Assembly: GCA_049591595.1 (NCBI GenBank)
Contig: JBAWFE010000027.1
Span: 149,812 to 213,811, forward strand
DNA length: 64,000 bases
Direction: 5' to 3'
DNA from: Candidatus Dormiibacterota bacterium
GTDB lineage: Bacteria; Chloroflexota; Dormibacteria; Aeolococcales; Bog-877
Positions 48,835 to 63,910 of this stretch are shown here, piece by piece. The number at the start of each line of letters is the position of its first letter. The stretch's first letter is position 1. A model generated the notes under the pieces. That model was not told where the DNA came from and ran no database searches. It saw only the letters and a list, made by a program, of their open reading frames with translations. Made by a program: the position numbers and the translations under genes.

Positions 48835-49666
48835 TGTCCGGACTCGGCGGGGGGCGGTAACCCGCCGACTCGCAAAGGGGTTCGGTGGCGTCTTTTTGGG
48901 GGCAATCCTGACTTTGACGCTGCCCGGCCTCCTGGCGGCCCCCGTGTTTGCCCAAACACCAGGCAGTGGAACTGGGTACAACGAAGAGCTAGTCAGTCTC
49001 ACCAACAACGACCGCACCAGTAACGGATTGGCGGCCCTGGCGGAGAACGGCGCCCTCGACGACATCGGAGAGAGTGGGGATTACGGTGGCTGCTCTCGAC
49101 CTATCTACGGACGGGCGGACGACATGATCACCAATGACTACTTCTCCCACGTCATTCCGGGATGCAGCGCCGACGGGGGCTACGTCTGGCCGATCATGTC
49201 GGCGTACGGAGTCGATTTCAGTTCAGCAGGCGAGAATGTCGGCTGGAACAGCGGCTACGCGGACCCGGCGGCCGGGGTGAACACCCAGTTCATGGACTCC
49301 GCTCCCCACCGGGCAAACATCCTGGGGGCATTTGACGAGCTTGGAGTCGGGTCCTGGTACACCTCAAGCTCCTGGAACTACCCGGGCAGCGGTGGCGGAC
49401 CCTGGACCGGCGTCTACATGTTCGCCGAGGAGTTCGCCCAGGTCGGCGGGTACACTCCGCCTCCGTCGTCGGGTGGCGGAGGTGGTGGCGGTGGTGGCGG
49501 TACGGCACCTAGCCCACCGGCAACGCCGGCTCCCACTCCGGTCCCGACCCCGACTCCCACCCCGAAGCCCCCTCCGCCCGGAGTGGGGTCAAAGTCGCCG
49601 AAGCTGGCCCAGGGATTGCTATCCAGCACAATTGACCAGGTGATCAGCAGCTACCTAGATGAGTGA
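48827..49666 (+). CDS. secreted CAP/SCP/PR-1-domain protein with Gly10 + Pro/Thr-rich linker
   Basis: Signal peptide (...LLAAPVFAQT), a CAP core (NNDRTSNGLAAL ... GENVGWN ... HRANIL) and GGGGGGGGGGTAPSPPATPAPTPVPTPTPTPKPPPPG. Confidence 0.6.
   Translation: MADVRTRRGAVTRRLAKGFGGVFLGAILTLTLPGLLAAPVFAQTPGSGTGYNEELVSLTNNDRTSNGLAALAENGALDDIGESGDYGGCSRPIYGRADDMITNDYFSHVIPGCSADGGYVWPIMSAYGVDFSSAGENVGWNSGYADPAAGVNTQFMDSAPHRANILGAFDELGVGSWYTSSSWNYPGSGGGPWTGVYMFAEEFAQVGGYTPPPSSGGGGGGGGGGTAPSPPATPAPTPVPTPTPTPKPPPPGVGSKSPKLAQGLLSSTIDQVISSYLDE
49468..49582 (+). repeat. low-complexity Gly10 / (Pro-Thr)n coding repeat
   Basis: ggtggcggaggtggtggcggtggtggcggt... followed by ccgac/ccgactcc-type PT repeats. 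Confidence 0.7.
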
Positions 49667-50474
49667 GGCGCCCGCCCCAGTCGAAAAGGGCGAGGTGGCA
49701 GGCCAGGCAGTGTTGGAAGCGACGGGACTTCACAAGAGCTTCTCCATCAGCAAGACCCCTCACGAAGTGGTTCGCCAGGTCTCACTGACGGTCAACCCCG
49801 GGGAGTTCTTCGCGGTGATGGGCCCCAGTGGATGCGGCAAGTCGACGCTGCTGAACATGCTCGGTGGGCTGGAAGCTCCCGACCAGGGCAAGGTGGTGGT
49901 AAGGGGGACCGATCTCTACTCCTTGAGCGAAGGCGAAAGGGCGGCGTTCCGACGTCGGCAGATCGGGTTCATCTTCCAGTTCTTCAACCTGCTCCCCAGC
50001 CTGACGGCCGCCGAGAACGTGATGCTGCCCTACCGCTTGGAGCGCAATCGCGCGTGGCCGCTGCGAGGGCTGGGACGAGACCGAGACGCGCGGGCCCGGG
50101 CCCACGATCTGATGGCGATGCTGGGGCTGAAGGGGCTGCAGGGACACCGACCTGACGAGATTTCTGGTGGTGAGCAGCAGCGGGTCGCGGTCGCCCGGGC
50201 CCTAGTCTCCGACCCGGCCATCCTGCTGGCGGACGAGCCCACCGGTACCTTGGACTACCACGCCGGTCGAGGCGTGCTGGAGCTGTTGCTGCGGCTGAGT
50301 CGGCAGGAGGGTCGGACCATCGTCCTGGTGACCCACGACGTCCGGACCGCCGCCTACGCCGAACGGGTGGCGATCATGCTCGACGGGGAGTTCAAGGAGG
50401 TGGTGCGGTTGGGTCACCGGACAGTTCACGACACCGCCCCACTGCTGGAAAGGCTCGGGACTCATGGTCTCTGA
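49659..50474 (+). CDS. ABC transporter ATP-binding protein (MacB/LolD/FtsE-like)
   Basis: [37 protein letters not shown]. 8-nt overlap with the CAP gene (ATGAGTGA). Confidence 0.9.
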   Translation: MSEAPAPVEKGEVAGQAVLEATGLHKSFSISKTPHEVVRQVSLTVNPGEFFAVMGPSGCGKSTLLNMLGGLEAPDQGKVVVRGTDLYSLSEGERAAFRRRQIGFIFQFFNLLPSLTAAENVMLPYRLERNRAWPLRGLGRDRDARARAHDLMAMLGLKGLQGHRPDEISGGEQQRVAVARALVSDPAILLADEPTGTLDYHAGRGVLELLLRLSRQEGRTIVLVTHDVRTAAYAERVAIMLDGEFKEVVRLGHRTVHDTAPLLERLGTHGL

Positions 50475-50489: not shown

Positions 50490-53000
50490 TTGATCCCCCT
50501 CCTTTGGCGCCGAGCGGCGCTGGCCCGCCTGGCCCTCGGAGTGGCCGCGCTGGCGCTGGGTGGCGGGGCGGTCCTGGGTACCCAGCTGACCTCGGGTGCG
50601 CTCCATCAGCAGGCGACCGCGGCGGTACAGCAACGAGCGGGTGCCGCCGAGTACGACATTCAACCGTTTGCCCGTCAGGGCTTCACGACTGCCCAGCTCA
50701 AGGCCATAGCCAAGCTCAAGGTGGTCACCTCGGCATCCCCATTGGAGGAGAAGGCCGATCTGGCCCGCCTCCCTTCCAAGGCCTTCCGGGAGGTGGTCCT
50801 GGTGGCGACCAGCGCCAGGGGGGTGGCGCTGCGCCCGCTGCCGGTAATTAAAGGGAGCAGCCCTCGGTCGGAGGATGAGGTGGCGGTGAGCCAGAACCTG
50901 GCCCCGGGCATCTCGCTCACCTCGGGTGCGGCTACCCCGGGCAAGGTCAGGATCGGCCAGCAGCTGCAGCTGGTCGAGTCCAAGGGGGTCAAGAAGTTCA
51001 CGGTGGTGGGAGTTGTCGCCAACTCCAGCTTGGGAGCGCCGTTCACCGCTGACGCCGTCTACATCAACCAGGCGACAGCCCAGAAGCTCTTCTCCTCGGG
51101 GCTGCAGGTGACCGAGGTCGCGGTCAGGCTCCGGCCCGGTGCGACCGTGCCCCAGCTGCTCAGCGAGCTCTCCCACTCTGTCCACACCCAGTACACCGTC
51201 AGCAACCCGAGATCAGTTCCGGAGGGAGATCCGGTGGGGGAGTTGCAGCCCATCCTTGACGGCATCACCGCGTTGAGCCTGGTGCTCGCCTTCGCGGTGA
51301 TCGCGGCGACCTTCAGCTCCCTGGTCCTCGACCGCCGCCGCGAGATTGGTTTACTCCGGCTAGCCGGAGCCAGCCGAGGTCTGATCTTCCGCAGCTTCTT
51401 GCGCGAAGCGATCGCCGCCTCGGCGCTGGGCGCCGCGATCGGGGTCGGGGTCGGGTACCTGCTGGCCCTGGTGCTGATCGCGGTCTCCACCCCCTCCGGG
51501 GTGAGCCCAGCGCCTCGAATCCAGGCCGACGTTGGTTGGACGGTAGTCGCCTTCCTGCTGGTACTGCTTCTGGGGGTGCTCGCGGCCGCGTTCCCGGCGG
51601 TCCAGGCAGCCCGGATACCGCCCCTGGTTGCGGTGCGACCGCCCGGCCTTCGACTCGGGCGGGGGTGGGCCTGGCAGCTTCCGCTGTTTGTGCTGGGAGT
51701 GATCGGGGCCGATTTCTTCTTCGAGAATGGAGGAGCGTTGGGAGTGGGCCTGGGCGCCGGTTTCGCCTACCTGGCTGTCTGCGCCGCCCTGGGGTGGATC
51801 GGTCCCCGCCTGGTGCGCATCCTGAGTATGGTCTTGGGCCCGCTGATCGGCACGCCGGTGGCAGCCATCTCCGCCCGCGGACGTACCCGTCCTGCCCGCA
51901 CCTCGCTCGCCCTGGCGGCCCTCTTCGTCAGCGTGGCGACGGCCATCGGCCTGGTGGGGCTCTCCAGTGCCGCCCTCACCGCGGGTCAGGTCTGGGTGAA
52001 CCACCTCTTCGTAGGCCAGTACCTCCTGGTCAGCCCGGTCGTCCAGACCACCAAGGTGGAGCAGCAGGTGCTGACCGCGATCTCGGCCAAAACCAGCAAC
52101 ACCACCGTGGTTGCTTCCGCCCCAGTCCGATTCGTGGCGGGGCGGGTGGGCCACGAGGCGATCTCCCTGGCGGCCACCTCGGCCACGGCCTACGGAATCA
52201 GCGGGGCGCTTCAGTTCATTCATGGCGACCGGGACTCGGCTCTGGCCCATCTCTCCGCCGGTCAGGGGGTGGTGCTGCCTCTTGAGCTCTCCGAGTCTCT
52301 GCACGCCTCGGTCGGCTCCAAAATCAAGGTGATCTCCGCCAGCGGATCCGGGTCGTTCCGGGTGGTCGGCGTGGTCGCCCACAGCCTCCCTGGCCCCTCC
52401 GGAGAGGAGTCGGCGGTGATCGACAGCGCCGCTGCCAAGAAGGACTTTGGCGCCGCCGCCGAGGGCTTCAACCTCATCCAGCTGGAGCTGCGGGGCGGGG
52501 CAGACCTTCAGCATCAGGTGGCCTTGGCCGCCTTCCGATACGGGTTGGAGGAGGAGACCGTCTCTACCGTGCGCCGGGGGGTGGACCTTGGCGTGCAGCA
52601 CGATATAGCGGCTCTCTCGGCGCTGGCCCTGGTGGGAGTGGTGATCGGCATCTTGGCCGCCATCAACACGGTCGTCCTCGGAGCCCGCGAGGGAACTCGA
52701 GACATGGCGCTGCTGCGGGTGGTGGGACTCAGCCGGGCGGAGACCCGTCGGGCGGTGATAGGGGAGGCGCTGGCCACCGCCATCGCCGGCTGTGCGGTCG
52801 GGATCGCTGTCGGGATCGGCCTGATCTCGCCAGAAGTTCACGTGGCGAACTCGGCCGCTCTGCCTCTCAGCTTCGGAGTCCCAGTCCTGGTGATCCTCGC
52901 GGTGGTTCTGGCGGTGGTCGTGGCCATCGTGCTGGCCGCCGTGATTCCGGCTCGCCAGCTCAGCAATCTCGATCCGGTGGCGGCGCTGAGCGTGGAGTGA
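50490..53000 (+). CDS. ABC transporter permease with two FtsX domains (MacB-type, 836 aa)
   Basis: Two repeats of one N-terminal TM, a ~200-aa extracytoplasmic domain, and 3 TM of FtsX type (LRLAGASRGLIFRSF... / LRVVGLSRAETRRAV...). Confidence 0.85.
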   Translation: MIPLLWRRAALARLALGVAALALGGGAVLGTQLTSGALHQQATAAVQQRAGAAEYDIQPFARQGFTTAQLKAIAKLKVVTSASPLEEKADLARLPSKAFREVVLVATSARGVALRPLPVIKGSSPRSEDEVAVSQNLAPGISLTSGAATPGKVRIGQQLQLVESKGVKKFTVVGVVANSSLGAPFTADAVYINQATAQKLFSSGLQVTEVAVRLRPGATVPQLLSELSHSVHTQYTVSNPRSVPEGDPVGELQPILDGITALSLVLAFAVIAATFSSLVLDRRREIGLLRLAGASRGLIFRSFLREAIAASALGAAIGVGVGYLLALVLIAVSTPSGVSPAPRIQADVGWTVVAFLLVLLLGVLAAAFPAVQAARIPPLVAVRPPGLRLGRGWAWQLPLFVLGVIGADFFFENGGALGVGLGAGFAYLAVCAALGWIGPRLVRILSMVLGPLIGTPVAAISARGRTRPARTSLALAALFVSVATAIGLVGLSSAALTAGQVWVNHLFVGQYLLVSPVVQTTKVEQQVLTAISAKTSNTTVVASAPVRFVAGRVGHEAISLAATSATAYGISGALQFIHGDRDSALAHLSAGQGVVLPLELSESLHASVGSKIKVISASGSGSFRVVGVVAHSLPGPSGEESAVIDSAAAKKDFGAAAEGFNLIQLELRGGADLQHQVALAAFRYGLEEETVSTVRRGVDLGVQHDIAALSALALVGVVIGILAAINTVVLGAREGTRDMALLRVVGLSRAETRRAVIGEALATAIAGCAVGIAVGIGLISPEVHVANSAALPLSFGVPVLVILAVVLAVVVAIVLAAVIPARQLSNLDPVAALSVE

Positions 53001-54486: not shown

Positions 54487-57186
54487 ATGAGTGTCTTCAG
54501 TCGGATCTACGACCCCACCCGCCGCGAGGTCCGCCGTCACACCGGCGAAGTGGAGGAGATTGGCGAGGTCGGAGAGGAGCTCAAGCCCCTATCGGACGAC
54601 GAGCTGCGGGCCAAGACTGACGAGTTCAAGGGCCGCCTCGAGGAGGGTGAGACCCTCGACGACCTCCTCGTCGAGGTCTTTGCGGTAGCTCGAGAGGCGG
54701 CCCAGCGTCACGTCGGGATGCGACCCTTTGACGTGCAGTGCCTGGGGGGCATTGTCCTGCACCAGGGGAAGATCGCCGAGATGAAGACCGGCGAGGGAAA
54801 GACGTTGGTGGCGGCCCTGCCCCTCTACCTGAACGCCCTGTCGGGAAGAGGCTGCTTCTTGGTCACCGTCAATGACTTTCTGGCTCGCCGTGACGCCGGC
54901 TGGAACGCCCCGATGTTCCATGCCCTGGGGATGCAGGTAGGGGTGATCATCCCCGACCAATCTCTGGTCTATGACCCGGAGTACACCGACGAGGCGCATA
55001 GCGATGTGCGGCTTCGGCACCTGCGACCGGTGTCGCGTGGCGAGGCGTATCAGGCAGATGTCGTGTACGCCACCAACAACGAGATGGGATTCGACTACCT
55101 GCGCGACAACCTCGCCAGGTCGCTCGACCAGAAGGTGCAGCGAGACCGCTACTTCGCGATCATCGACGAAGTCGACTCGATCCTCATCGACGAAGCTCGC
55201 ACGCCTCTGATCATCAGCGGACTGGGTGAAGAAGCGCCGGAAAAATACTACCAATACGCGCGACTTATTCCCCGGCTGACGGCGGAGGTCGACTACACCA
55301 TCGACGAGAAAACCAAGTCGGGAAGCCTCACTGACGAGGGGATCGAGAAGATCGAGCGGATGACCGGGGTGGCCAACATTTATGACATCGAGCATGTGGA
55401 GGAGGCGCACCACATCAACCAGGCCTTGCGGGCCCACGCGCTCTACCTCAAGGACCGCGAGTACATCGTTCGGGATGGCGAGGTGGTGATCGTCGACGAA
55501 TTCACTGGACGCACCATGCCCGGCCGACGGTGGTCGGACGGTCTGCACCAGGCGATCGAGGCCAAGGAGGGGGTCAAGGTACAGCAGGAGCAGCGGACGC
55601 TGGCCACTGTGACTTTCCAGAACTACTTCCGCACCTTCGAAGTGCTGGCCGGGATGACCGGGACGGCCATCACCGAGGCGGAGGAGTTCCACAAGATCTA
55701 CCGCCTGGAGGTGGTGCCGATACCGACCAACAAGCCGATGGTGCGACTCGACGAACCGGACCTCATCTTCCGCTCGGAGGAGGTCAAGTTCAAGGCCATC
55801 GCCGACGAGATTGAGGAGCGTAGCCGGAAGGGTCAGCCGGTGCTGGTGGGCACGGTGAGTATCGAGAAGAGCGAGCGCCTCTCGCGACTCCTGGAGAAGC
55901 GGGGCGTCACCCACGAGGTTCTCAACGCCAAGCAGCACGAACGCGAGGCCGAGGTGGTGGCGGCGGCAGGTCAGCGGTCAGCGGTAACCATCGCCACCAA
56001 CATGGCCGGTAGGGGTACTGACATCGTGCTCGGGCAGGGTGTCCAGGAGCTGGGCGGTCTCTACATCATGGGTACCGAAAGACATGAGTCACGGCGGATC
56101 GACAACCAGCTGCGAGGCCGTGCGGGACGACAGGGTGACCGCGGTGAGAGTCGCTTCTTCCTCTCCTTTGAGGATGACCTGATGCGCGTGTTCGGTGGGG
56201 AGCGGATGCGGGGATTGATGGCGCGGTTCGGAATGGACGAGGACGTGCCCATCGAATCCGGAATGGTCAGTCGCCAGATCGAGTCGGCGCAGTCACGGGT
56301 GGAGGGCGCCAACTTCGATAGTCGACGTTACGTCGTTGAATTCGATGACGTGGTCAACATGCAACGCGCCATCATCTACGCAGAGCGGGACCGAATCCTG
56401 GAAGGTGTCGACACCCGCGACAACATCAATCAGTGGACCGAAGAAGTTGTCCGGGACCTGATCACGGTCTATTGCCCCGGCCGACACCAAGCCCAGTGGG
56501 ACCTGGATGGGCTGTGGAATCGTCTGCGCTACGTTTTTCCCTTCCCACCTGCTGAGGAGGTCGAACTAGAACAGCTCGGCGAAAGCCCGGAAGAGGTGAC
56601 CGACACCCTGATCCACGAGGCAGAGCGCCTCTATACGGAGAAGGAGGCGCTCTACACCGAGGACGTGGTGAGGATTGCCGAGACGCAGCTAATGCTGCAG
56701 TTGATCGACCAACGGTGGGCGGACTATCTCACCACTCTGGAACATCTCAAGGATGACATCCGCTGGCAGTCGTTGGGTCAGCGAGACCCGCTCGTCGAGT
56801 TCAAGGCTGAGGCCTTCTCCGCTTTCTCGTCCTTCCAGGAGTCGCTCAAGCAGGAGATCGTCCGCTACCTGTTCCATGCGGAGATCCAGGTCACCCCAGC
56901 GGAGGCAGCCCCGCTCGAGGGGGTGGCTGTGCATCCTGATGCAGGACGGCCCGGAGAGGTCGGCTCCGATCCTAGGGCCATGCTGACGAATCCCGCTTCC
57001 TTGGAGGAGGCGCCCCAAGCGGTGGCCGGGCCACCAGCCAGGTCGATGACTAGTCCTAGCCAGCCCCTCCGCAGCGGTGCGACAGCTCAGGTAGCCGCGG
57101 CCGGCGGGGCTCCAGTCAGCCGCAATGCTCTTTGTCCATGCGGTTCTGGCCGTAAGTACAAGCGGTGCCACGGAGCGACCGAATGA
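54487..57186 (+). CDS. secA: preprotein translocase ATPase SecA
   Basis: DEAD-motor motifs (MKTGEGKT, IIDEVDSILIDEARTPLIIS, TNMAGRGTDI). C-terminal zinc-binding CPCGSGRKYKRCHG. Confidence 0.97.
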   Translation: MSVFSRIYDPTRREVRRHTGEVEEIGEVGEELKPLSDDELRAKTDEFKGRLEEGETLDDLLVEVFAVAREAAQRHVGMRPFDVQCLGGIVLHQGKIAEMKTGEGKTLVAALPLYLNALSGRGCFLVTVNDFLARRDAGWNAPMFHALGMQVGVIIPDQSLVYDPEYTDEAHSDVRLRHLRPVSRGEAYQADVVYATNNEMGFDYLRDNLARSLDQKVQRDRYFAIIDEVDSILIDEARTPLIISGLGEEAPEKYYQYARLIPRLTAEVDYTIDEKTKSGSLTDEGIEKIERMTGVANIYDIEHVEEAHHINQALRAHALYLKDREYIVRDGEVVIVDEFTGRTMPGRRWSDGLHQAIEAKEGVKVQQEQRTLATVTFQNYFRTFEVLAGMTGTAITEAEEFHKIYRLEVVPIPTNKPMVRLDEPDLIFRSEEVKFKAIADEIEERSRKGQPVLVGTVSIEKSERLSRLLEKRGVTHEVLNAKQHEREAEVVAAAGQRSAVTIATNMAGRGTDIVLGQGVQELGGLYIMGTERHESRRIDNQLRGRAGRQGDRGESRFFLSFEDDLMRVFGGERMRGLMARFGMDEDVPIESGMVSRQIESAQSRVEGANFDSRRYVVEFDDVVNMQRAIIYAERDRILEGVDTRDNINQWTEEVVRDLITVYCPGRHQAQWDLDGLWNRLRYVFPFPPAEEVELEQLGESPEEVTDTLIHEAERLYTEKEALYTEDVVRIAETQLMLQLIDQRWADYLTTLEHLKDDIRWQSLGQRDPLVEFKAEAFSAFSSFQESLKQEIVRYLFHAEIQVTPAEAAPLEGVAVHPDAGRPGEVGSDPRAMLTNPASLEEAPQAVAGPPARSMTSPSQPLRSGATAQVAAAGGAPVSRNALCPCGSGRKYKRCHGATE

Positions 57187-57290: not shown

Positions 57291-58673
57291 TCAGACGGCC
57301 GATGCGGTTGCCTGGCCGACCGGCGCAAGTGCCGGGGCCGGTGCACTGCCGGGTACCTCTTCGAGTTGCCAATCTCCTGACAAGGCGGAACTCCCGGCCG
57401 CCAGCGCTGCCCACATGGCGGCGAAGGCCACGAAGTAGTAATCGATGAAGGCGAACTTGGCAAAAAACATGGCAAAAATCGTGACTACCGCGGCATCGGT
57501 GAGAATCCCCCCGAACCCCTGAGTGGGCCGGGTCATGATCAAGGCGAGGACCAATCCGGCGGCGGCGATGCCGAGGAACCCCGGGAGGGGATGGTGACCA
57601 ATCAGGGTCAGGATCCCGGCCAACGACAGCGAACCGGTACCCACCTGGCCATGAAAGTGGACGCCGATCGTGTAGTACCAGTAGCGGCCAATTCCTGTCC
57701 ACAACGCGAAGCACGCGACGATCACCAACCCGATGCCGACCGCCGCCACTATCTCCGTCATCATTCGACGGCTGCGCAGAAATAGGACCAGCAGGAGCGG
57801 GCCGGCCTGCACCGGCGCACACCCCATGGTCAGGCCAAGCACGATGATGGAGGCGGTGCGGTGGGAGCGGCGCAGCACCAACCACCAGGCGATGCCGGCG
57901 ATGACCACCAGCATCGGCCAGGCGTTGATTACCATCGCAACCATCAGCGGCGCCAGGCAGACCGTGACTGCAACCCGCAGCCCCTCAGCCCGGGAGCCGG
58001 CCAGCCGATACAGCGCGGCAGCCAACCCGGCGGCCGCCAGCACTGAGATCACCCGGGGATCCCCGAAGAGCAGGCCCACAGCGGCCAGTACGGCCACGAT
58101 GGGGCCGTAGGTGAAGTGAACTAGACGGGGAGCTCCGATGGTGGTGGAGCGGTGGACGGCCAAGTAGGGGTCAGCGCCGTGGAGTAGAGCATGCCCGGCT
58201 GAGCGCAGCCCGAAGAGCACGTCGATCTGGGAGGGGTCCCACCGCCAGGTCAAGGCGAGGAAGGTCAGGGCTCCCACGCCCGCCACCACCAACGCGACTT
58301 GGTCATGACCTGTGGCGATCAACGCCGCTGCCGCCAAGGCTGCCAGCACGTAGACCCAGACCGACCAGCCGTGCGGCCATGCGCTGAAATTTGCCAGCAG
58401 CAGAGAGAGACCGAGCGCGGCCACCGCAGCCGCCCAGAGCCATGTCGGGGGCGAGCCACTGGGCAGGCTGCGGCAGATCAGGAGGAGAGCGACGGTGGCG
58501 CCCAGGGCAACCAGCGCCAGGTCGCTGATGTACCCAGCGTGATTGACAAGCGCCAGATCCAGGGTGAAGAGAGCCAGCAGGAGGGCGCCTTCACGAGTCA
58601 GCGACGGCAGCGGTACTGACGAGGGCCAGAACCTTGCCAGGGGCGACCTGGGCACACCCGCCGGGGCCTCCAT
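57291..58673 (-). CDS. DUF2029/GT87-like polytopic membrane protein
   Basis: HALLHGADPYLAVH loop motif and ~12 TM. The likely start is ATG 58673 (MEAPAG...); the ORF is open to 58826 but that would overlap the prfB start. Confidence 0.45.
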   Translation of the reverse strand: MEAPAGVPRSPLARFWPSSVPLPSLTREGALLLALFTLDLALVNHAGYISDLALVALGATVALLLICRSLPSGSPPTWLWAAAVAALGLSLLLANFSAWPHGWSVWVYVLAALAAAALIATGHDQVALVVAGVGALTFLALTWRWDPSQIDVLFGLRSAGHALLHGADPYLAVHRSTTIGAPRLVHFTYGPIVAVLAAVGLLFGDPRVISVLAAAGLAAALYRLAGSRAEGLRVAVTVCLAPLMVAMVINAWPMLVVIAGIAWWLVLRRSHRTASIIVLGLTMGCAPVQAGPLLLVLFLRSRRMMTEIVAAVGIGLVIVACFALWTGIGRYWYYTIGVHFHGQVGTGSLSLAGILTLIGHHPLPGFLGIAAAGLVLALIMTRPTQGFGGILTDAAVVTIFAMFFAKFAFIDYYFVAFAAMWAALAAGSSALSGDWQLEEVPGSAPAPALAPVGQATASAV

Positions 58674-58789
58674 CCGGCGATTATCCGAGGCGTGAGAGGG
58701 GCATCGGTGACGGCAGGGTCGCAAATCGGCAGCTTTACGCCGCGTCAGACGGCGGACCGTTGATCGGAGAACGGTAGACTCAGCTGCAA

Positions 58790-59906
58790 ATGGATGAGTT
58801 GAGCACCCGCGCCCAGCAGCTAGCACGACGAGCCGCTCAGCTCAAGGAGCATCTTTGACTTCGCGGGCAAGGGAGCTCGGGCTGAGCTCCTAGAGGAGGA
58901 ACTAGGCCGCGAGGGAGCGTGGGACGACCCTACCCGCGCCCAGGAAGCGTCGCAGGAGCTGAGCCGGCTGCGCGGCGAACTCCAGGAGCTCTCCACGCTG
59001 GACAGACGGGCCCAGGACGCCATTGAACTGGCCGAGCTTCTGGAGGAGGACGCCTCGGGAGCGGACGAGGTGGTGGCCGAGTTGACGCTGATCGAGAAGG
59101 AGCTGGACCGCCGCGAGCTGGAGCTGCTGTACCAAGATCCTTACTCCAACTACCCCGCCCTGCTCTCGGTCCATTCGGGTGCCGGCGGTACCGACGCCCA
59201 GGACTGGAGCGAGATGCTGCTGCGGATGTATCTCAAGTGGGGTGAATCTCACCGGATGGAGACCCATCTCCTCGATCAGTCCGAAGGCGAAGAGGCAGGT
59301 ATCAAGAGCGTGACCGTGCGCTTCACGGGAACCCACGCCTACGGCCAGCTGCGGGCAGAAAAGGGAGTACACCGACTGGTGCGGATCAGTCCCTTTGACG
59401 CGGCACACCGGCGTCACACGGCGTTCGCGCTGGTAGAGGTCTATCCCGAGATACCCGACGAAGTTGAGGTGGAGATCGACGAGAAGGACGTGCGCGTCGA
59501 TGTCTACCGGAGCTCGGGCGCCGGAGGCCAGCACGTCAACAAGACCTCGTCGGCGGTCCGGCTCACGCACATCCCGACCGGGATCGTGGTGACCTGTCAG
59601 AACGAGCGCTCACAGCAGCAGAACCGGGAGGCCGCCTGGCGGGTGCTGCGCTCTCGGTTGCTGGACTACCAAAGGGCCCAGCGGCTGGATCATTTGGCCG
59701 ACCTGAAGGGCGACCTGATCTCCCCCGAATGGGGCAACCAGATCCGCTCCTATGTGCTCCAGCCATACACCCTGGTCAAGGACAACCGCACCGCGGTGGA
59801 GGTGGGGAACGTGGAAGCCGTGCTGCAGGGCGAGATCGACCCGTTTATCGAGGCTTACTTGCGCCTGGAGGCCACCAACCGCGAGCAGGAAGGCGGGGCG
59901 GCGTAG
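58790..59906 (+). CDS. prfB: peptide chain release factor 2, requiring a programmed +1 ribosomal frameshift at 58853-58859
   Basis: The zero frame MDELSTRAQQLARRAAQLKEHL stops at TGA 58856-58858. The +1 frame from 58857 continues DFAGKG... through SPF and GGQ (SGAGGQHVNKTSSAVRLTHIPTGIVVTCQNERSQ) to 59906. The site AAGGAGcatCTTTGAC has the same architecture as E. coli prfB. Confidence 0.9.
58844..58859 (+). promoter_or_regulatory. prfB autoregulatory +1 frameshift site (internal SD AAGGAG, 3-nt spacer, CUU UGA C)
   Basis: aaggag cat ctt tga c, read directly from the sequence. Confidence 0.85.
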
Positions 59907-60183
59907 GTTCCCACATCAGTTCGCCGATTTTGGCTTGCGGGAACGCGAATGCGTGTGCAGGTGACGGCCCAAACACGCCATGTACCGAGACTGACCCCTT
60001 CGGTGGGTCGCGGGTCGCAGGTACCGGTCACGAAAGGTATACTCGGGCCAAAATCGAGAACGGCCAAGGGCTTCAACACTCTCCCATTTTGGGGGTCCGC
60101 CCGTCGGCTGCCAGTCCGCCTGGCACGAGGACCAAGCCTCCCCTGATGTCGATTTCCACCAGCCCGCCGGTACCGGTCGTGAT

Positions 60184-60925
60184 GACCGGGGCTCGGAGCA
60201 GTGACCTGGCTCGGAGCGAGCCACCGATCATCGTCTTCGAGCAGGTCACCAAGATCTACGCCAACGGTCAGGCGGCGATCCGTGACGCCTCGTTCACGGT
60301 GCGGCCGCGCGACTTCGTCTTCGTGGTGGGGGCCAGCGGGGCCGGCAAGTCCACCGTCATCCGGCTCCTGATCCGAGAAGAGCGGGCGACCCAGGGCCAC
60401 GTCCTGGTCGAGGGTCAGGATCTGGCCCGGCTGAAGCACCGTCACCTGCCCCGGCTGCGTCGCAAGATGGGCATCGTCTTCCAGGACTTCAAACTGCTTC
60501 CCAGCCTCACCGTGGAGCAGAACGTCGCATTCGCCATCCAGGTAACCGATCCAGGTCGACCCCATCTCAAAGAGAAGGTCGGGGAAGCTCTCTACATCGT
60601 CGGACTGGAGGACAAGCTCAACGCCTACCCCACGGAACTCTCCGGTGGGGAGCAACAGCGGGTGGCCATCGCCAGAGCGCTGGTGCATCGGCCCCGAATA
60701 TTCCTGGCCGATGAGCCCACCGGAAACCTTGACCCCGACGCCGGCTGGGGCATCGTCCAGTTGCTCCAGCAGATCAACCACCGGGGAGCCACCGTGGTGA
60801 TGGCCACCCATAACCGTGAGGTGGTCGACCTCTGTCGCCGCCGAGTGCTAGCGATCGAGGACGGCCGGATCGTCCGAGATGAGGCTGAAGGGGCTTATCT
60901 CCGGGATGGGGATGCCATCTTATGA
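60184..60925 (+). CDS. ftsE: cell-division ABC ATPase FtsE
   Basis: [45 protein letters not shown]. Start uncertain (ATG 60184 or ATG 60146). Confidence 0.85.
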
Positions 60926-61818
60926 ATCCCATCCCCGCCCTCAAGTTCGTCACCCGGGTGGCGATCCAGAACATCCTGCGCAACCGCGGCATCGCGGTGG
61001 CCAGCGTCCTGACGATCACCCTCACCCTACTCGGAGCCGGCGTGGCCGTGGTGGTGGTGCACGCCCTCGACGGGGTGCTCCACACCGAGGAGTCGCAGGC
61101 TTCGGTCTTGAAGGTGTTCATGGCGGACCACGTCGCATTCGCCAGTGAGGTGAATCTGGAGCAGAACCTAGGCAACTCGCCCTCGGTCGCCAAGACCACC
61201 TTCGAGAACAAGGATCAGGCGGCCCAGCAGGCCGGCAGCAGCCTCGGTCTCACCCAGGCGATCAATCTGCTGGAGAAGTCGGGAGCCGGCAACCCGCTGC
61301 CCGCATCGATCAACTTCCAGCTGCGCAACATCAAGGCGGTCTCGCAACTGAACCGCGAGGTCCGGACGTCGGCTCTTCTGGACAGCGGACCTCACCCCAC
61401 CGACTACAACGCCGACGTCGTCCCCCGCCTGGAGCGCTACATATTTGTGGCCCAGCTGGGCGGCGGGCTGGTGGTGGGCGTGGTCGGCGCCGTGGCACTG
61501 GTGATCATCACCATCTCGGTGCGAACGGCGGCCTACGTCCGACGGCGAGAGATCGAGATCATGAAACTGGTGGGGGCGACCGATTGGTTTGTGCGCTGGC
61601 CCTTCGTGCTGGAGGGAGTCATCGTGGGGGTGATCTCGGCGCTGGTGGCCTCGCTCATCCTGCTCGGGGTGGGCTTCGGATTCGGCGGCGGCCAGGGCTT
61701 GGCCCTGGGGGTGGGGGCCAGATTTGCCCTCCTCACCGTCTTGGCCCTGGTGGTCGCCGGGGGCGCGCTCGGTTCGGTCGGTAGTTTCGTCGGGGTGCGG
61801 CGCTCGCTGGCGACCTGA
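60922..61818 (+). CDS. ftsX: cell-division permease-like protein FtsX
   Basis: The ATG overlaps the ftsE stop (ATGA). FtsX topology and the motif EIEIMKLVGATDWFVRWPF. Confidence 0.85.
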   Translation: MNPIPALKFVTRVAIQNILRNRGIAVASVLTITLTLLGAGVAVVVVHALDGVLHTEESQASVLKVFMADHVAFASEVNLEQNLGNSPSVAKTTFENKDQAAQQAGSSLGLTQAINLLEKSGAGNPLPASINFQLRNIKAVSQLNREVRTSALLDSGPHPTDYNADVVPRLERYIFVAQLGGGLVVGVVGAVALVIITISVRTAAYVRRREIEIMKLVGATDWFVRWPFVLEGVIVGVISALVASLILLGVGFGFGGGQGLALGVGARFALLTVLALVVAGGALGSVGSFVGVRRSLAT

Positions 61819-61912
61819 TCCAGCCGACCTGCCCGACTTCGACCAGCCGACCCGATTGCTGGCGGCGCTAGGATGGCGCGGGTCCTCGCGAGTTGATGGA
61901 GGCAGGCAAGCG

Positions 61913-62917
61913 ATGGCACTGACCGAGTCGGCGCCGGTGGGGGTAGCGGGGCTCACGCGCGACCGGCTGCGATCGATGTATCGGGACATGCTCCTCGGCC
62001 GACTCCTCGACCAGCGGGTGCTGGTTCTCAATCGGCAAGGAAGAGCGCCGTTCGCGATCTCAGGACAGGGCCACGAAGGAGCCCAGGTAGGAGTCGGGTA
62101 CGCCCTTCGGCGGGACTACGACTGGATCATTCCCTACTACCGCGACATCTCCCTGGTGCTGGTGATGGGAATGGAGCCGCGAGACCAGCTGCTGGCAGCT
62201 CTCGCCAAGGCCGGGGATCCCAACAGTGGCGCCCGTCAGATGCCCGCTCACTACTCCTCGAGGAAACACAACATCGTGACTGGCGGGAGCCCGGTGGCGA
62301 CCCAGATCCTGCACGCAGTCGGAGTCGCCCAGGCATTCAAGTACCGCAAGGAGGACCGGGTGGTGGTGGCCTCGGTGGGAGAGGGGGGCACCAGCGAGGG
62401 TGACTGGCACGAGGGACTCAACTGGGCCGCCATCCACCAGCTGCCGGTGATCTTCCTGGTCGAGAACAACTCGTTTGCGATCAGCGTCCCGCAGTCCCTG
62501 CAGATGGCGGTGGAGCACGTGTCCGAGCGAGCGTCCGGCTACGGGATGCCCGGGCAGTGGGTGGATGGGGGCGACGTCCTGGCGGTGTACCGAGCGGCCA
62601 GCGAGGCGGTCGCGCGTGCCCGTCGCGGAGGCGGCCCGACGCTTTTGGAAGCGGCCTGCGTCCGGCTCCAATCCCACAGCAGCGACGACGACCAGCGCCG
62701 CTACCGCAGCCCCGAGGATCTGGAGGAGATGCGCCGGCACGACCCGCTGGAGCGCTTCCGAGCGGACCTGGAGTCAAGCTCGATCCTCGCCGAGGGAGAG
62801 GCGGATCAGATCCGCCTGGAGTGCCAGAGCCTGATCGACCAAGCCCAGGACGAAGCCGACCAGGCACCGGCTCCGGACCCGTCGACCGCCCTTCAGCATG
62901 TCTACGGCGAGGCCTGA
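61913..62917 (+). CDS. 2-oxo-acid (pyruvate/branched-chain/acetoin) dehydrogenase E1 component alpha subunit
   Basis: TPP-binding region SVGEGGTSEGDWHEGLNWAAIHQLPVIFLVENN. ATG 61913 after GGAGG; the ORF is open from 61724 but that overlaps ftsX. Confidence 0.85.
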   Translation: MALTESAPVGVAGLTRDRLRSMYRDMLLGRLLDQRVLVLNRQGRAPFAISGQGHEGAQVGVGYALRRDYDWIIPYYRDISLVLVMGMEPRDQLLAALAKAGDPNSGARQMPAHYSSRKHNIVTGGSPVATQILHAVGVAQAFKYRKEDRVVVASVGEGGTSEGDWHEGLNWAAIHQLPVIFLVENNSFAISVPQSLQMAVEHVSERASGYGMPGQWVDGGDVLAVYRAASEAVARARRGGGPTLLEAACVRLQSHSSDDDQRRYRSPEDLEEMRRHDPLERFRADLESSSILAEGEADQIRLECQSLIDQAQDEADQAPAPDPSTALQHVYGEA

Positions 62918-62920
62918 TAG

Positions 62921-63910
62921 GTGACGGAAATCACCTACGTGGAGGCCGTTCGCGACGCGCTCCGAGACGAGATGCGCCGTGACGACCGGGTCATCGTCAT
63001 GGGGGAGGATGTGGGGGTCAAGGGCGGGGTGTTCGGGGCCACCGCGGGACTCTTTCAGGAGTTCGGGGAGGAGCGGGTGATAGACAGCCCGCTCGCCGAG
63101 GCGGCGATCGTCGGCGTGGCGATCGGCTGCGCCTTGGCGGGCCTCCGGCCGGTGGCGGAGATTCAGTTCCTGGACTTCATCCCGCCGGCCATGGATCAGC
63201 TCATCAGCGAGGCCGCCAAGATTCGTTACCGATCCAACAACGACTGGAGCTGCCCCATGGTGGTGCGTGCCCCCTGCGGTGGTGGGGTCCACGTCCATGG
63301 TGCCCTCTACCACTCTCAGATGCTGGAGGCGCTCTTCGCCCACGTACCGGGGCTCAAGGTAGTGCTGCCGTCCAATCCCTACGACGCCAAGGGCCTGCTG
63401 CTGTCAGCGCTCCGCGATCCCGATCCGGTCTGCTTTTTCGAGCACAAGGGTCTCTACCGCTCGATGCGCCAGGAGGTCCCCGACGAGGAGTATCTGGTCC
63501 CCATCGGCAAGGGCCAGATCGTGCGCCCGGGCCGCGACATCAGTTGCTTCACCTACGGGGCTACCGTGCACGAGGTGGTGAGCGCGGCTGAGAGTCTTGG
63601 CCGCGACGGGATTGAGGTCGAGGTGGTGGACCTTCGCACGGTCCGGCCGTTGGACCGAGAACTGATCGTCGAGAGTGCAACCAGAACTGGCAAGGTGCTG
63701 GTTGCTCACGAGGCCAACCTGTCGGTTGGAGTAGGGGCCGAGGTCGCGGCCCTGGTTGCCGAGGAGTGCTTCGAGACGCTTGACGGCCCGGTGATGCGGA
63801 TTGGTGGACCTGAGATCCCAGCCATCCCCTTCGCCGAGTCCCTGGCAGAGGTCTACTGCCTCGGACCTCAGAAGATCGAGAGAAAGCTCAGGGAGTTGGC
63901 CGCGTACTAA
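62921..63910 (+). CDS. 2-oxo-acid dehydrogenase E1 component beta subunit
   Basis: VIVMGEDVGVKGGVFGATAGLFQEFGEERVIDSPLAE (transketolase-like pyrimidine domain) and a C-terminal transketolase_C. Confidence 0.9.
   Translation: MTEITYVEAVRDALRDEMRRDDRVIVMGEDVGVKGGVFGATAGLFQEFGEERVIDSPLAEAAIVGVAIGCALAGLRPVAEIQFLDFIPPAMDQLISEAAKIRYRSNNDWSCPMVVRAPCGGGVHVHGALYHSQMLEALFAHVPGLKVVLPSNPYDAKGLLLSALRDPDPVCFFEHKGLYRSMRQEVPDEEYLVPIGKGQIVRPGRDISCFTYGATVHEVVSAAESLGRDGIEVEVVDLRTVRPLDRELIVESATRTGKVLVAHEANLSVGVGAEVAALVAEECFETLDGPVMRIGGPEIPAIPFAESLAEVYCLGPQKIERKLRELAAY

Follow-up and report, generated by a model that had tools for sequence, protein, structure and literature searches.

Does the segment at positions 58790 to 59906 (plus strand) of the DNA studied here hold a truncated gene for release factor 2 (RF2), or a complete prfB gene that is divided between two reading frames? 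We refer to the whole analyzed stretch, which is 64,000 nucleotides long, as the window. A sequence-only reading of the window had proposed the second answer and had warned that the gene might be annotated as truncated. It had also stated that the open reading frame (ORF) list contains, for this segment, only the downstream piece and a spurious antisense ORF. This is the case: the list holds a GTG-started piece of 278 aa (59070-59906), an antisense ORF of 222 aa (58902-59570), and nothing else. Our analysis leaves little room for doubt that the segment is a single prfB gene in two frames, belongs to a Candidatus Dormibacterota genome and is expressed via a canonical programmed +1 ribosomal frameshift.

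Layout of the prfB locus

The DNA from position 58790 reads ATG GAT GAG ... CAG CTC AAG GAG CAT CTT TGA C. The frame opened by this ATG (frame 0) ends after 22 sense codons at the TGA in 58856-58858. A TAG is located in frame upstream, at 58775-58777, and ATG 58790 is therefore the sole possible start of the leader. The locus comprises the following features, among which the leader ending at TGA, the heptamer CTTTGAC at 58853-58859 and the AAGGAG run 3 nt upstream of it all lie exactly where the sequence-only reading had placed them.

58775-58780, plus strand: TAGACT, a -10-like hexamer and tentative promoter element, 9 nt upstream of ATG 58790
58790-58855, plus strand: prfB frame-0 leader, 22 sense codons, MDELSTRAQQLARRAAQLKEHL
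58844-58849, plus strand: internal Shine-Dalgarno (SD)-like stimulator AAGGAG
58850-58852, plus strand: spacer CAT, 3 nt, a His codon
58853-58856, plus strand: slippery CTTT, consisting of the P-site Leu codon CTT and the first base of the stop codon
58856-58858, plus strand: premature in-frame, RF2-specific stop TGA, codon 23 of frame 0
58857-59906, plus strand: prfB +1-frame body, 349 sense codons from GAC 58857, stop TAG at 59904-59906
58859, plus strand: C after TGA, giving the weak-termination context TGA-C

Within the heptamer, the CTT codon occupies 58853-58855. AAGGAG, which matches the general bacterial SD consensus, stands 3 nt before CTT and 6 nt before TGA. The +1 frame is open from 58824, directly after a TAG at 58821-58823, through the TAG at 59904-59906, so that prfB itself terminates in TAG. 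No ATG, GTG or TTG is present in the +1 frame between 58824 and 59069 (82 codons), and the first such codon is GTG 59070. For this reason a mechanical ORF list shows the 278-aa piece alone. It also bears out the earlier statement that no downstream start gives a full-length RF2.

The prfB frameshift motif has been described as an SD-like run 6 nt before the stop codon, a CTT (giving CTTT), an RF2-specific TGA, and a C following it (PMC12421855). Every sequence-defined element of this motif is present at the locus, with canonical spacing. Judged by its sequence, the site belongs to the known class of prfB recoding sites, which has been described already, and it brings no new biology.

By itself, the heptamer CTTTGAC does not identify a shift site, as the window contains 10 copies versus 4.3 expected. 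The composite GGAG-N3-CTTTGA occurs once in the window versus 0.15 expected, and this sole copy is in the correct register, at codon 22-23 of the RF2 gene. A second CTTTGAC lies inside prfB at 59393-59399 (plus strand), in the codons for SPF and the following Asp (AGT CCC TTT GAC). No SD-like run precedes this copy, which is also out of register, and it is thus a coincidence of coding SPFD.

The joined frames encode a full-length RF2

Translation of 58790-58855 joined to 58857-59906 yields a protein of 371 aa. This joined product matches the NCBIfam model TIGR00020 (prfB) with 469 bits (cutoff 370) over profile positions 2-353 of 353, in agreement with the claim that a complete RF2 needs the +1 join. 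Models for prfA (RF1) score far under their cutoffs on the same protein. Pfam places the PCRF domain at residues 30-215 and the RF-1 domain at residues 223-333, and the top PDB matches are RF2 chains. The RF2-specific tripeptide SPF is found at residues 200-202 (nt 59388-59396), and GGQ at residues 245-247 (nt 59523-59531).

The two frames make separate contributions to this match. Taken alone, the 278-aa piece scores 417 bits and covers profile positions 91-353 only, and the +1 frame alone covers positions 12-353. The frame-0 leader contributes positions 2-11, with position 2 reached by the joined protein only. Since full coverage of the profile (2-353) is obtained only when the frames are joined, both frames are, by this measure, needed for full-length RF2. 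In one respect the sequence-only reading was imprecise. It held that alignment of the SPF and GGQ motifs depends on the N-terminal extension, but both motifs fall within the 278-aa piece. The part that the shift adds is the stretch of 93 N-terminal residues, made up of domain 1 and the beginning of PCRF.

The joined protein aligns without gaps from residue 1 with the uninterrupted RF2 of four loci (L015, L032, L048, L077) from Rubrobacteraceae, Microthrixaceae and Ca. Moranbacteria, and the frame-0 leader has its homologue in the N-terminal helix encoded by uninterrupted RF2 genes. The translate-and-align check that had been proposed for the locus thus gives a protein that is collinear, through the junction, with RF2 structures as well as with uninterrupted RF2s. 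No second RF2 gene and no RF1 gene were found in the window.

Conservation of the shift site among Dormibacterota

The nearest proteins and loci are from metagenome-assembled genomes (MAGs) of Candidatus Dormibacterota, with up to 95% identity. We compared 13 Dormibacterota loci, namely the window, ten close loci (L001-L009 and L017) and two distant ones (L081, from Ca. Aeolococcus gillhamiae, and L082). The relatives counted were those containing the prfB 5' end, 12 in number. CTTTGAC is present in register after a 22-codon leader in all ten close Dormibacteria loci, and also follows a 22-codon leader in L081 and L082, at about 61-62% identity. The conservation of CUU UGA C, which had been named as a check, is therefore found in the same register in 12 of 12 relatives. 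Across all 13 loci the leader is 22 codons long and the columns C-T-T-T-G-A-C are invariant.

Positions close to the site are less constrained. The His codon of the spacer is CAT or CAC across the relatives, the spacing being constant and the third position free, and the Leu codon before the SD-like run and spacer region alternates between CTC and CTG among the loci. CTT accounts for only 6% of the codons used for Leu in these prfB genes, and for the same share in 37 long ORFs from the window. Because so rare a codon is nevertheless present at the site in 13/13 loci, selection must have fixed it there for its nucleotides rather than for the amino acid that it encodes.

The SD-like run is kept in 12 of the 13 loci, as AAGGAG in nine and as CAGGAG, AAGGAA or CGGGAG in three. 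In L081 (1552-1570) it is degenerate and reads CTCGGC, with CAT-CTT-TGA-C and the 22-codon leader kept. The shift site of L081 may need little help from an SD-like element in order to function, and the stimulator may perhaps be unequal in importance across the phylum.

Codon-position variability follows the change of frame. Upstream of the site, the mean column entropy in frame 0 is 0.71, 0.60 and 1.15 at codon positions 1, 2 and 3, respectively. Downstream of the site, the corresponding values in frame +1 are 0.68, 0.70 and 1.23. The site marks the exact point at which third-position variability passes from frame 0 into frame +1, and the peak at position 3 on either side indicates that both frames are under protein-level selection, each on its own side.

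Outside Dormibacterota, loci from Chloroflexota, Acidobacteriota and other groups have CTTTGAC with GGTG, GGAG or GGGG stimulators. Uninterrupted prfB genes were found in most Acidimicrobiia loci and in all Rubrobacteraceae loci.

Proposed mechanism and alternative readings

Shifting at this site, and its response to the level of RF2, are carried over from work on E. coli and B. subtilis. By analogy, ribosomes would initiate at ATG 58790 and read 22 codons, until CUU occupies the P site and UGA-C the A site. With RF2 abundant, the UGA would be read and a 22-residue peptide released. With RF2 scarce, the ribosome would pause, and AAGGAG, 3 nt upstream, would pair with the anti-SD tail of the 16S rRNA, presumably also in the case of the organism's own 16S rRNA. 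The peptidyl-tRNA-Leu would then slip from CUU to UUU, with GAC decoded next. The expected product is the 371-residue RF2 with the junction ...QLKEHL-DFAGK..., and the net effect would be that RF2 limits its own synthesis.

The alternative that survives best accepts a genuine and obligatory +1 site, but regards it mainly as a fixed attenuator of expression, not as RF2-responsive feedback, in a TGA-rich, high-GC lineage. The composition of the window fits such a view, as its GC content is 65.5% and TGA ends 25 of its 37 long high-GC3 ORFs by a crude count. High TGA use has also been linked to loss of the motif, and shifting of about 6% is reported for Mycobacterium smegmatis (PMC12421855). The degenerate stimulator of L081 points in the same direction. 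However, the stop codon is the RF2-specific TGA followed by C in 13/13 loci, a pattern that is the signature of RF2-dependent competition (PMC12421855). No other data presented here separate attenuation from the canonical reading. We consider a predominantly fixed attenuator very improbable and favor the canonical, RF2-responsive frameshift, with the reservation that, given the high-GC, TGA-rich profile, the feedback here may be strong or weak.

RF2 could also be imagined to be made without any shift, from GTG 59070 (as the 278-aa protein) or from a non-canonical +1-frame start (ATC 58851, or CTG 58959 and later ones). The substantial TIGR00020 score of the 278-aa piece, which includes SPF and GGQ, would be consistent with such a scenario, and AAGGAG is conceivable as an SD sequence for initiation. 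However, the 82 start-less +1 codons before 59070 encode the conserved domain 1 of RF2 and the start of PCRF, and the frame-0 leader is conserved as a protein, homologous to the N-terminus of uninterrupted RF2. In addition, ATC 58851 is only 1 nt past AAGGAG, too near for SD-directed initiation, and GTG 59070 has no SD-like run upstream. Non-canonical +1-frame starts were therefore ruled out by spacing and by the conserved frame-0 leader, and synthesis of RF2 without a shift has in our judgment hardly any probability at all.

A frame break caused by an assembly or sequencing error, or by a recent pseudogenizing 1-nt insertion without recoding, is just as improbable: an indel error would look like a single extra base, and the window is probably a metagenome-derived contig, as are its nearest relatives, but conservation across those relatives effectively refutes this explanation, since the identical extra T in CTTTGAC recurs at one and the same codon in 12 MAGs that different studies assembled independently, is accompanied by an SD-like run at fixed spacing and by the rare CTT codon, and separates two frames that show purifying selection on their respective sides.

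Upstream region and RNA structure

The flanks upstream of prfB cannot be aligned among the Dormibacterota loci apart from a TAnnnT hexamer, which 12 of the 13 loci have at a distance of 6-9 nt before the prfB start codon. It reads TAGACT in eight loci, TACACT in two, TAAACT in one and TACGAT in one. The exception is L009, where GAGGAG stands 6 nt before the start codon and no such hexamer is present. TAGACT occurs three times in the whole window, and at prfB its TAG doubles as the in-frame stop that bounds the leader ORF. TAGACT may act as a promoter element. A scan of 58500-60300 for sigma-70 consensus promoters returned nothing. No SD-like run was found near ATG 58790. The conserved -10-like hexamer, together with the missing SD before this ATG, suggests that the prfB mRNA is leaderless or nearly leaderless.

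A hairpin is predicted at 58835-58887 (plus strand; -31 kcal/mol, z = -2.2), with GCUCAGCUC...GAGC...UCUUUG paired to CAAGGG...GCUC...GGGCUGAGC, and it would bury the SD-like run and the shift site. The consensus fold of 11 sequences (the window and 10 relatives) reaches -3.5 kcal/mol without covariation. We rejected the hairpin as an extra stimulator of shifting, because it is not conserved in the 10 relatives and is probably a lineage-specific chance structure.

The terminator scan gave one terminator-like site, on the minus strand inside prfB and at chance level. Rfam searches of the whole window at gathering thresholds gave 0 matches and no rRNA gene, and ARAGORN detected no tRNA or tmRNA in the window.

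Neighboring genes

The genes around prfB are the following.

49659-50474, plus strand: ABC ATPase
50490-53000, plus strand: FtsX-like permease, 836 aa
53008-54474, plus strand: GT87 glycosyltransferase
54487-57186, plus strand: secA
57291-58826 at most, minus strand: membrane-like hydrophobic ORF of up to 511 aa, between secA and prfB
59729-60925, plus strand: ORF containing ftsE (FtsE model, 274 bits; cutoff 265)
60922-61818, plus strand: ftsX
downstream of ftsX, plus strand, in the neighborhood 59729-63910: alpha and beta subunits of a 2-oxoacid dehydrogenase E1

The ABC ATPase and the FtsX-like permease form a MacB-like pair. The order prfB-ftsE-ftsX recurs in both distant relatives, L081 and L082, and in L082 secA is also found upstream. 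The ORFs of ftsE and ftsX overlap by 4 nt (60922-60925). As listed, the ftsX and E1-alpha ORFs also overlap, at 61724-61818, and the start of E1-alpha is therefore probably downstream of TTG 61724.

The hydrophobic minus-strand ORF has no match in Pfam or NCBIfam. At its full listed length it shares 37 nt with the beginning of the prfB leader. This overlap is probably an artefact of choosing the most upstream GTG start. Translation probably begins more internally, for example at a Met near 58670, which would leave a divergent intergenic region of about 120 nt.

The 222-aa ORF antisense to prfB has no Pfam match either. It is a shadow ORF of the kind usual in high-GC3 genes, and the sequence-only reading was right in calling it spurious.

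Annotation of orthologous genes

The concern that the gene might be mis-annotated as truncated is a real one, as public calls of its orthologues are often truncated or in the wrong frame. NCBI orthologue genes are already annotated with the shift and have a gene length of 3n+1. We checked the junctions of five proteins (P0005, P0015, P0019, P0021 and P0001) against the loci L017, L009 and L001. In the NCBI proteins P0005, P0015, P0019 and P0021 the junction is placed 1-3 codons too early, giving KSIFDF or KEIFDF and not KEHLDF. For instance, P0005 reads ...QLKSIFDFAGK, whereas the DNA of L017 predicts ...QLKEHLDFAGK. The JGI protein P0001 begins with VPSNWTDVPPNSGSIFDF... in the +1 frame, a false N-terminus. 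Many gene calls from JGI, ENA and Logan are cut to 255-341 aa or started in the +1 frame, and only some records, such as P0006, have the junction predicted by the mechanism.

The main value of the present analysis is therefore one of annotation. When recoding is ignored, gene calling yields a 278-aa fragment or a protein with a false N-terminus. The junction ...QLKEHL-DFAGK... predicted by the mechanism would also provide a testable tryptic peptide, EHLDFAGK.

Comparison with known systems

The locus shares its essential features with prfB of E. coli, namely an early in-frame TGA preceded by CTT (CTTT) and followed by C, a purine-rich SD-like run separated by 3 nt from CTT and by 6 nt from the stop, and a +1 frame that encodes the remaining RF2. 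The spacer is TAT in E. coli and CAT here. The SD-like run is AAGGAG here versus AGGGGG in E. coli, and the TGA is codon 23 here versus codon 26 in E. coli (PMC12421855).

Among solved structures, B. subtilis RF2 (PDB 9fy1, 6szs) is the best match, with E = 3e-102 over residues 3-359 and thus through the junction. The window segment 'lkehldfagkgar' is aligned opposite 'frgsldleskear' of B. subtilis, with Leu22-Asp23 on the Leu-Asp of the B. subtilis sequence ('gsLD'). In B. subtilis, too, secA is located upstream of prfB, as is the case here. Unlike in B. subtilis, secA and prfB are separated here by the minus-strand membrane-protein ORF, and the SD-like sequence differs from that of B. subtilis prfB.

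The RF2 proteins of other Dormibacterota MAGs, such as P0006 (from DATDII010000136.1, locus L003) and P0069 (from L081), are orthologues with 61-95% identity. They have the same 22-codon leader, CAY-CTT-TGA-C and prfB-ftsE-ftsX context. Nothing specific came up in a literature search that combined Dormibacterota with frameshift, leaderless or release factor.

The uninterrupted prfB genes of Actinomycetota (L014, L015, L020, L032, L048 and others, from Rubrobacteraceae and Acidimicrobiia) belong to the same family, are likewise high in GC, and are collinear with the gene in the window from residue 1. They differ from it at the corresponding position, where the premature stop, CTTTGA and the SD-like run are all absent. 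These loci agree with the phylum-wide absence of the motif in Actinomycetota that was reported in 2025 in a survey of 2,658 genomes (PMC12421855).

A possible functional analogy exists with Flavobacterium johnsoniae, whose prfB keeps its internal SD-like stimulator even though initiation does not rely on SD sequences (PMC10798248). The reason in Bacteroidia is sequestration of the anti-SD tail, whereas the reason suggested here would be a leaderless mRNA.

In the 2025 survey, high GC content and high TGA use correlate with loss of the motif (PMC12421855). The lineage of the window is apparently TGA-rich and high in GC, yet has retained the motif, and so runs counter to this correlation. We tentatively entertain, at rather less than even probability, a combined scenario in which the prfB mRNA is leaderless or nearly so, has the frameshift stimulator as its sole SD-like element, and has retained autoregulation despite high GC and TGA use. 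If this were true, Dormibacterota would be a natural counter-example to the model that attributes loss of the motif to high UGA demand, and 70S-type leaderless initiation would be coupled to SD-stimulated recoding. The RF2 feedback device has been viewed as predating the bacterial radiation (PMC12421855), and the locus adds a data point that fits this view, an uncultured, high-GC, TGA-rich phylum that retains the ancestral RF2 device.
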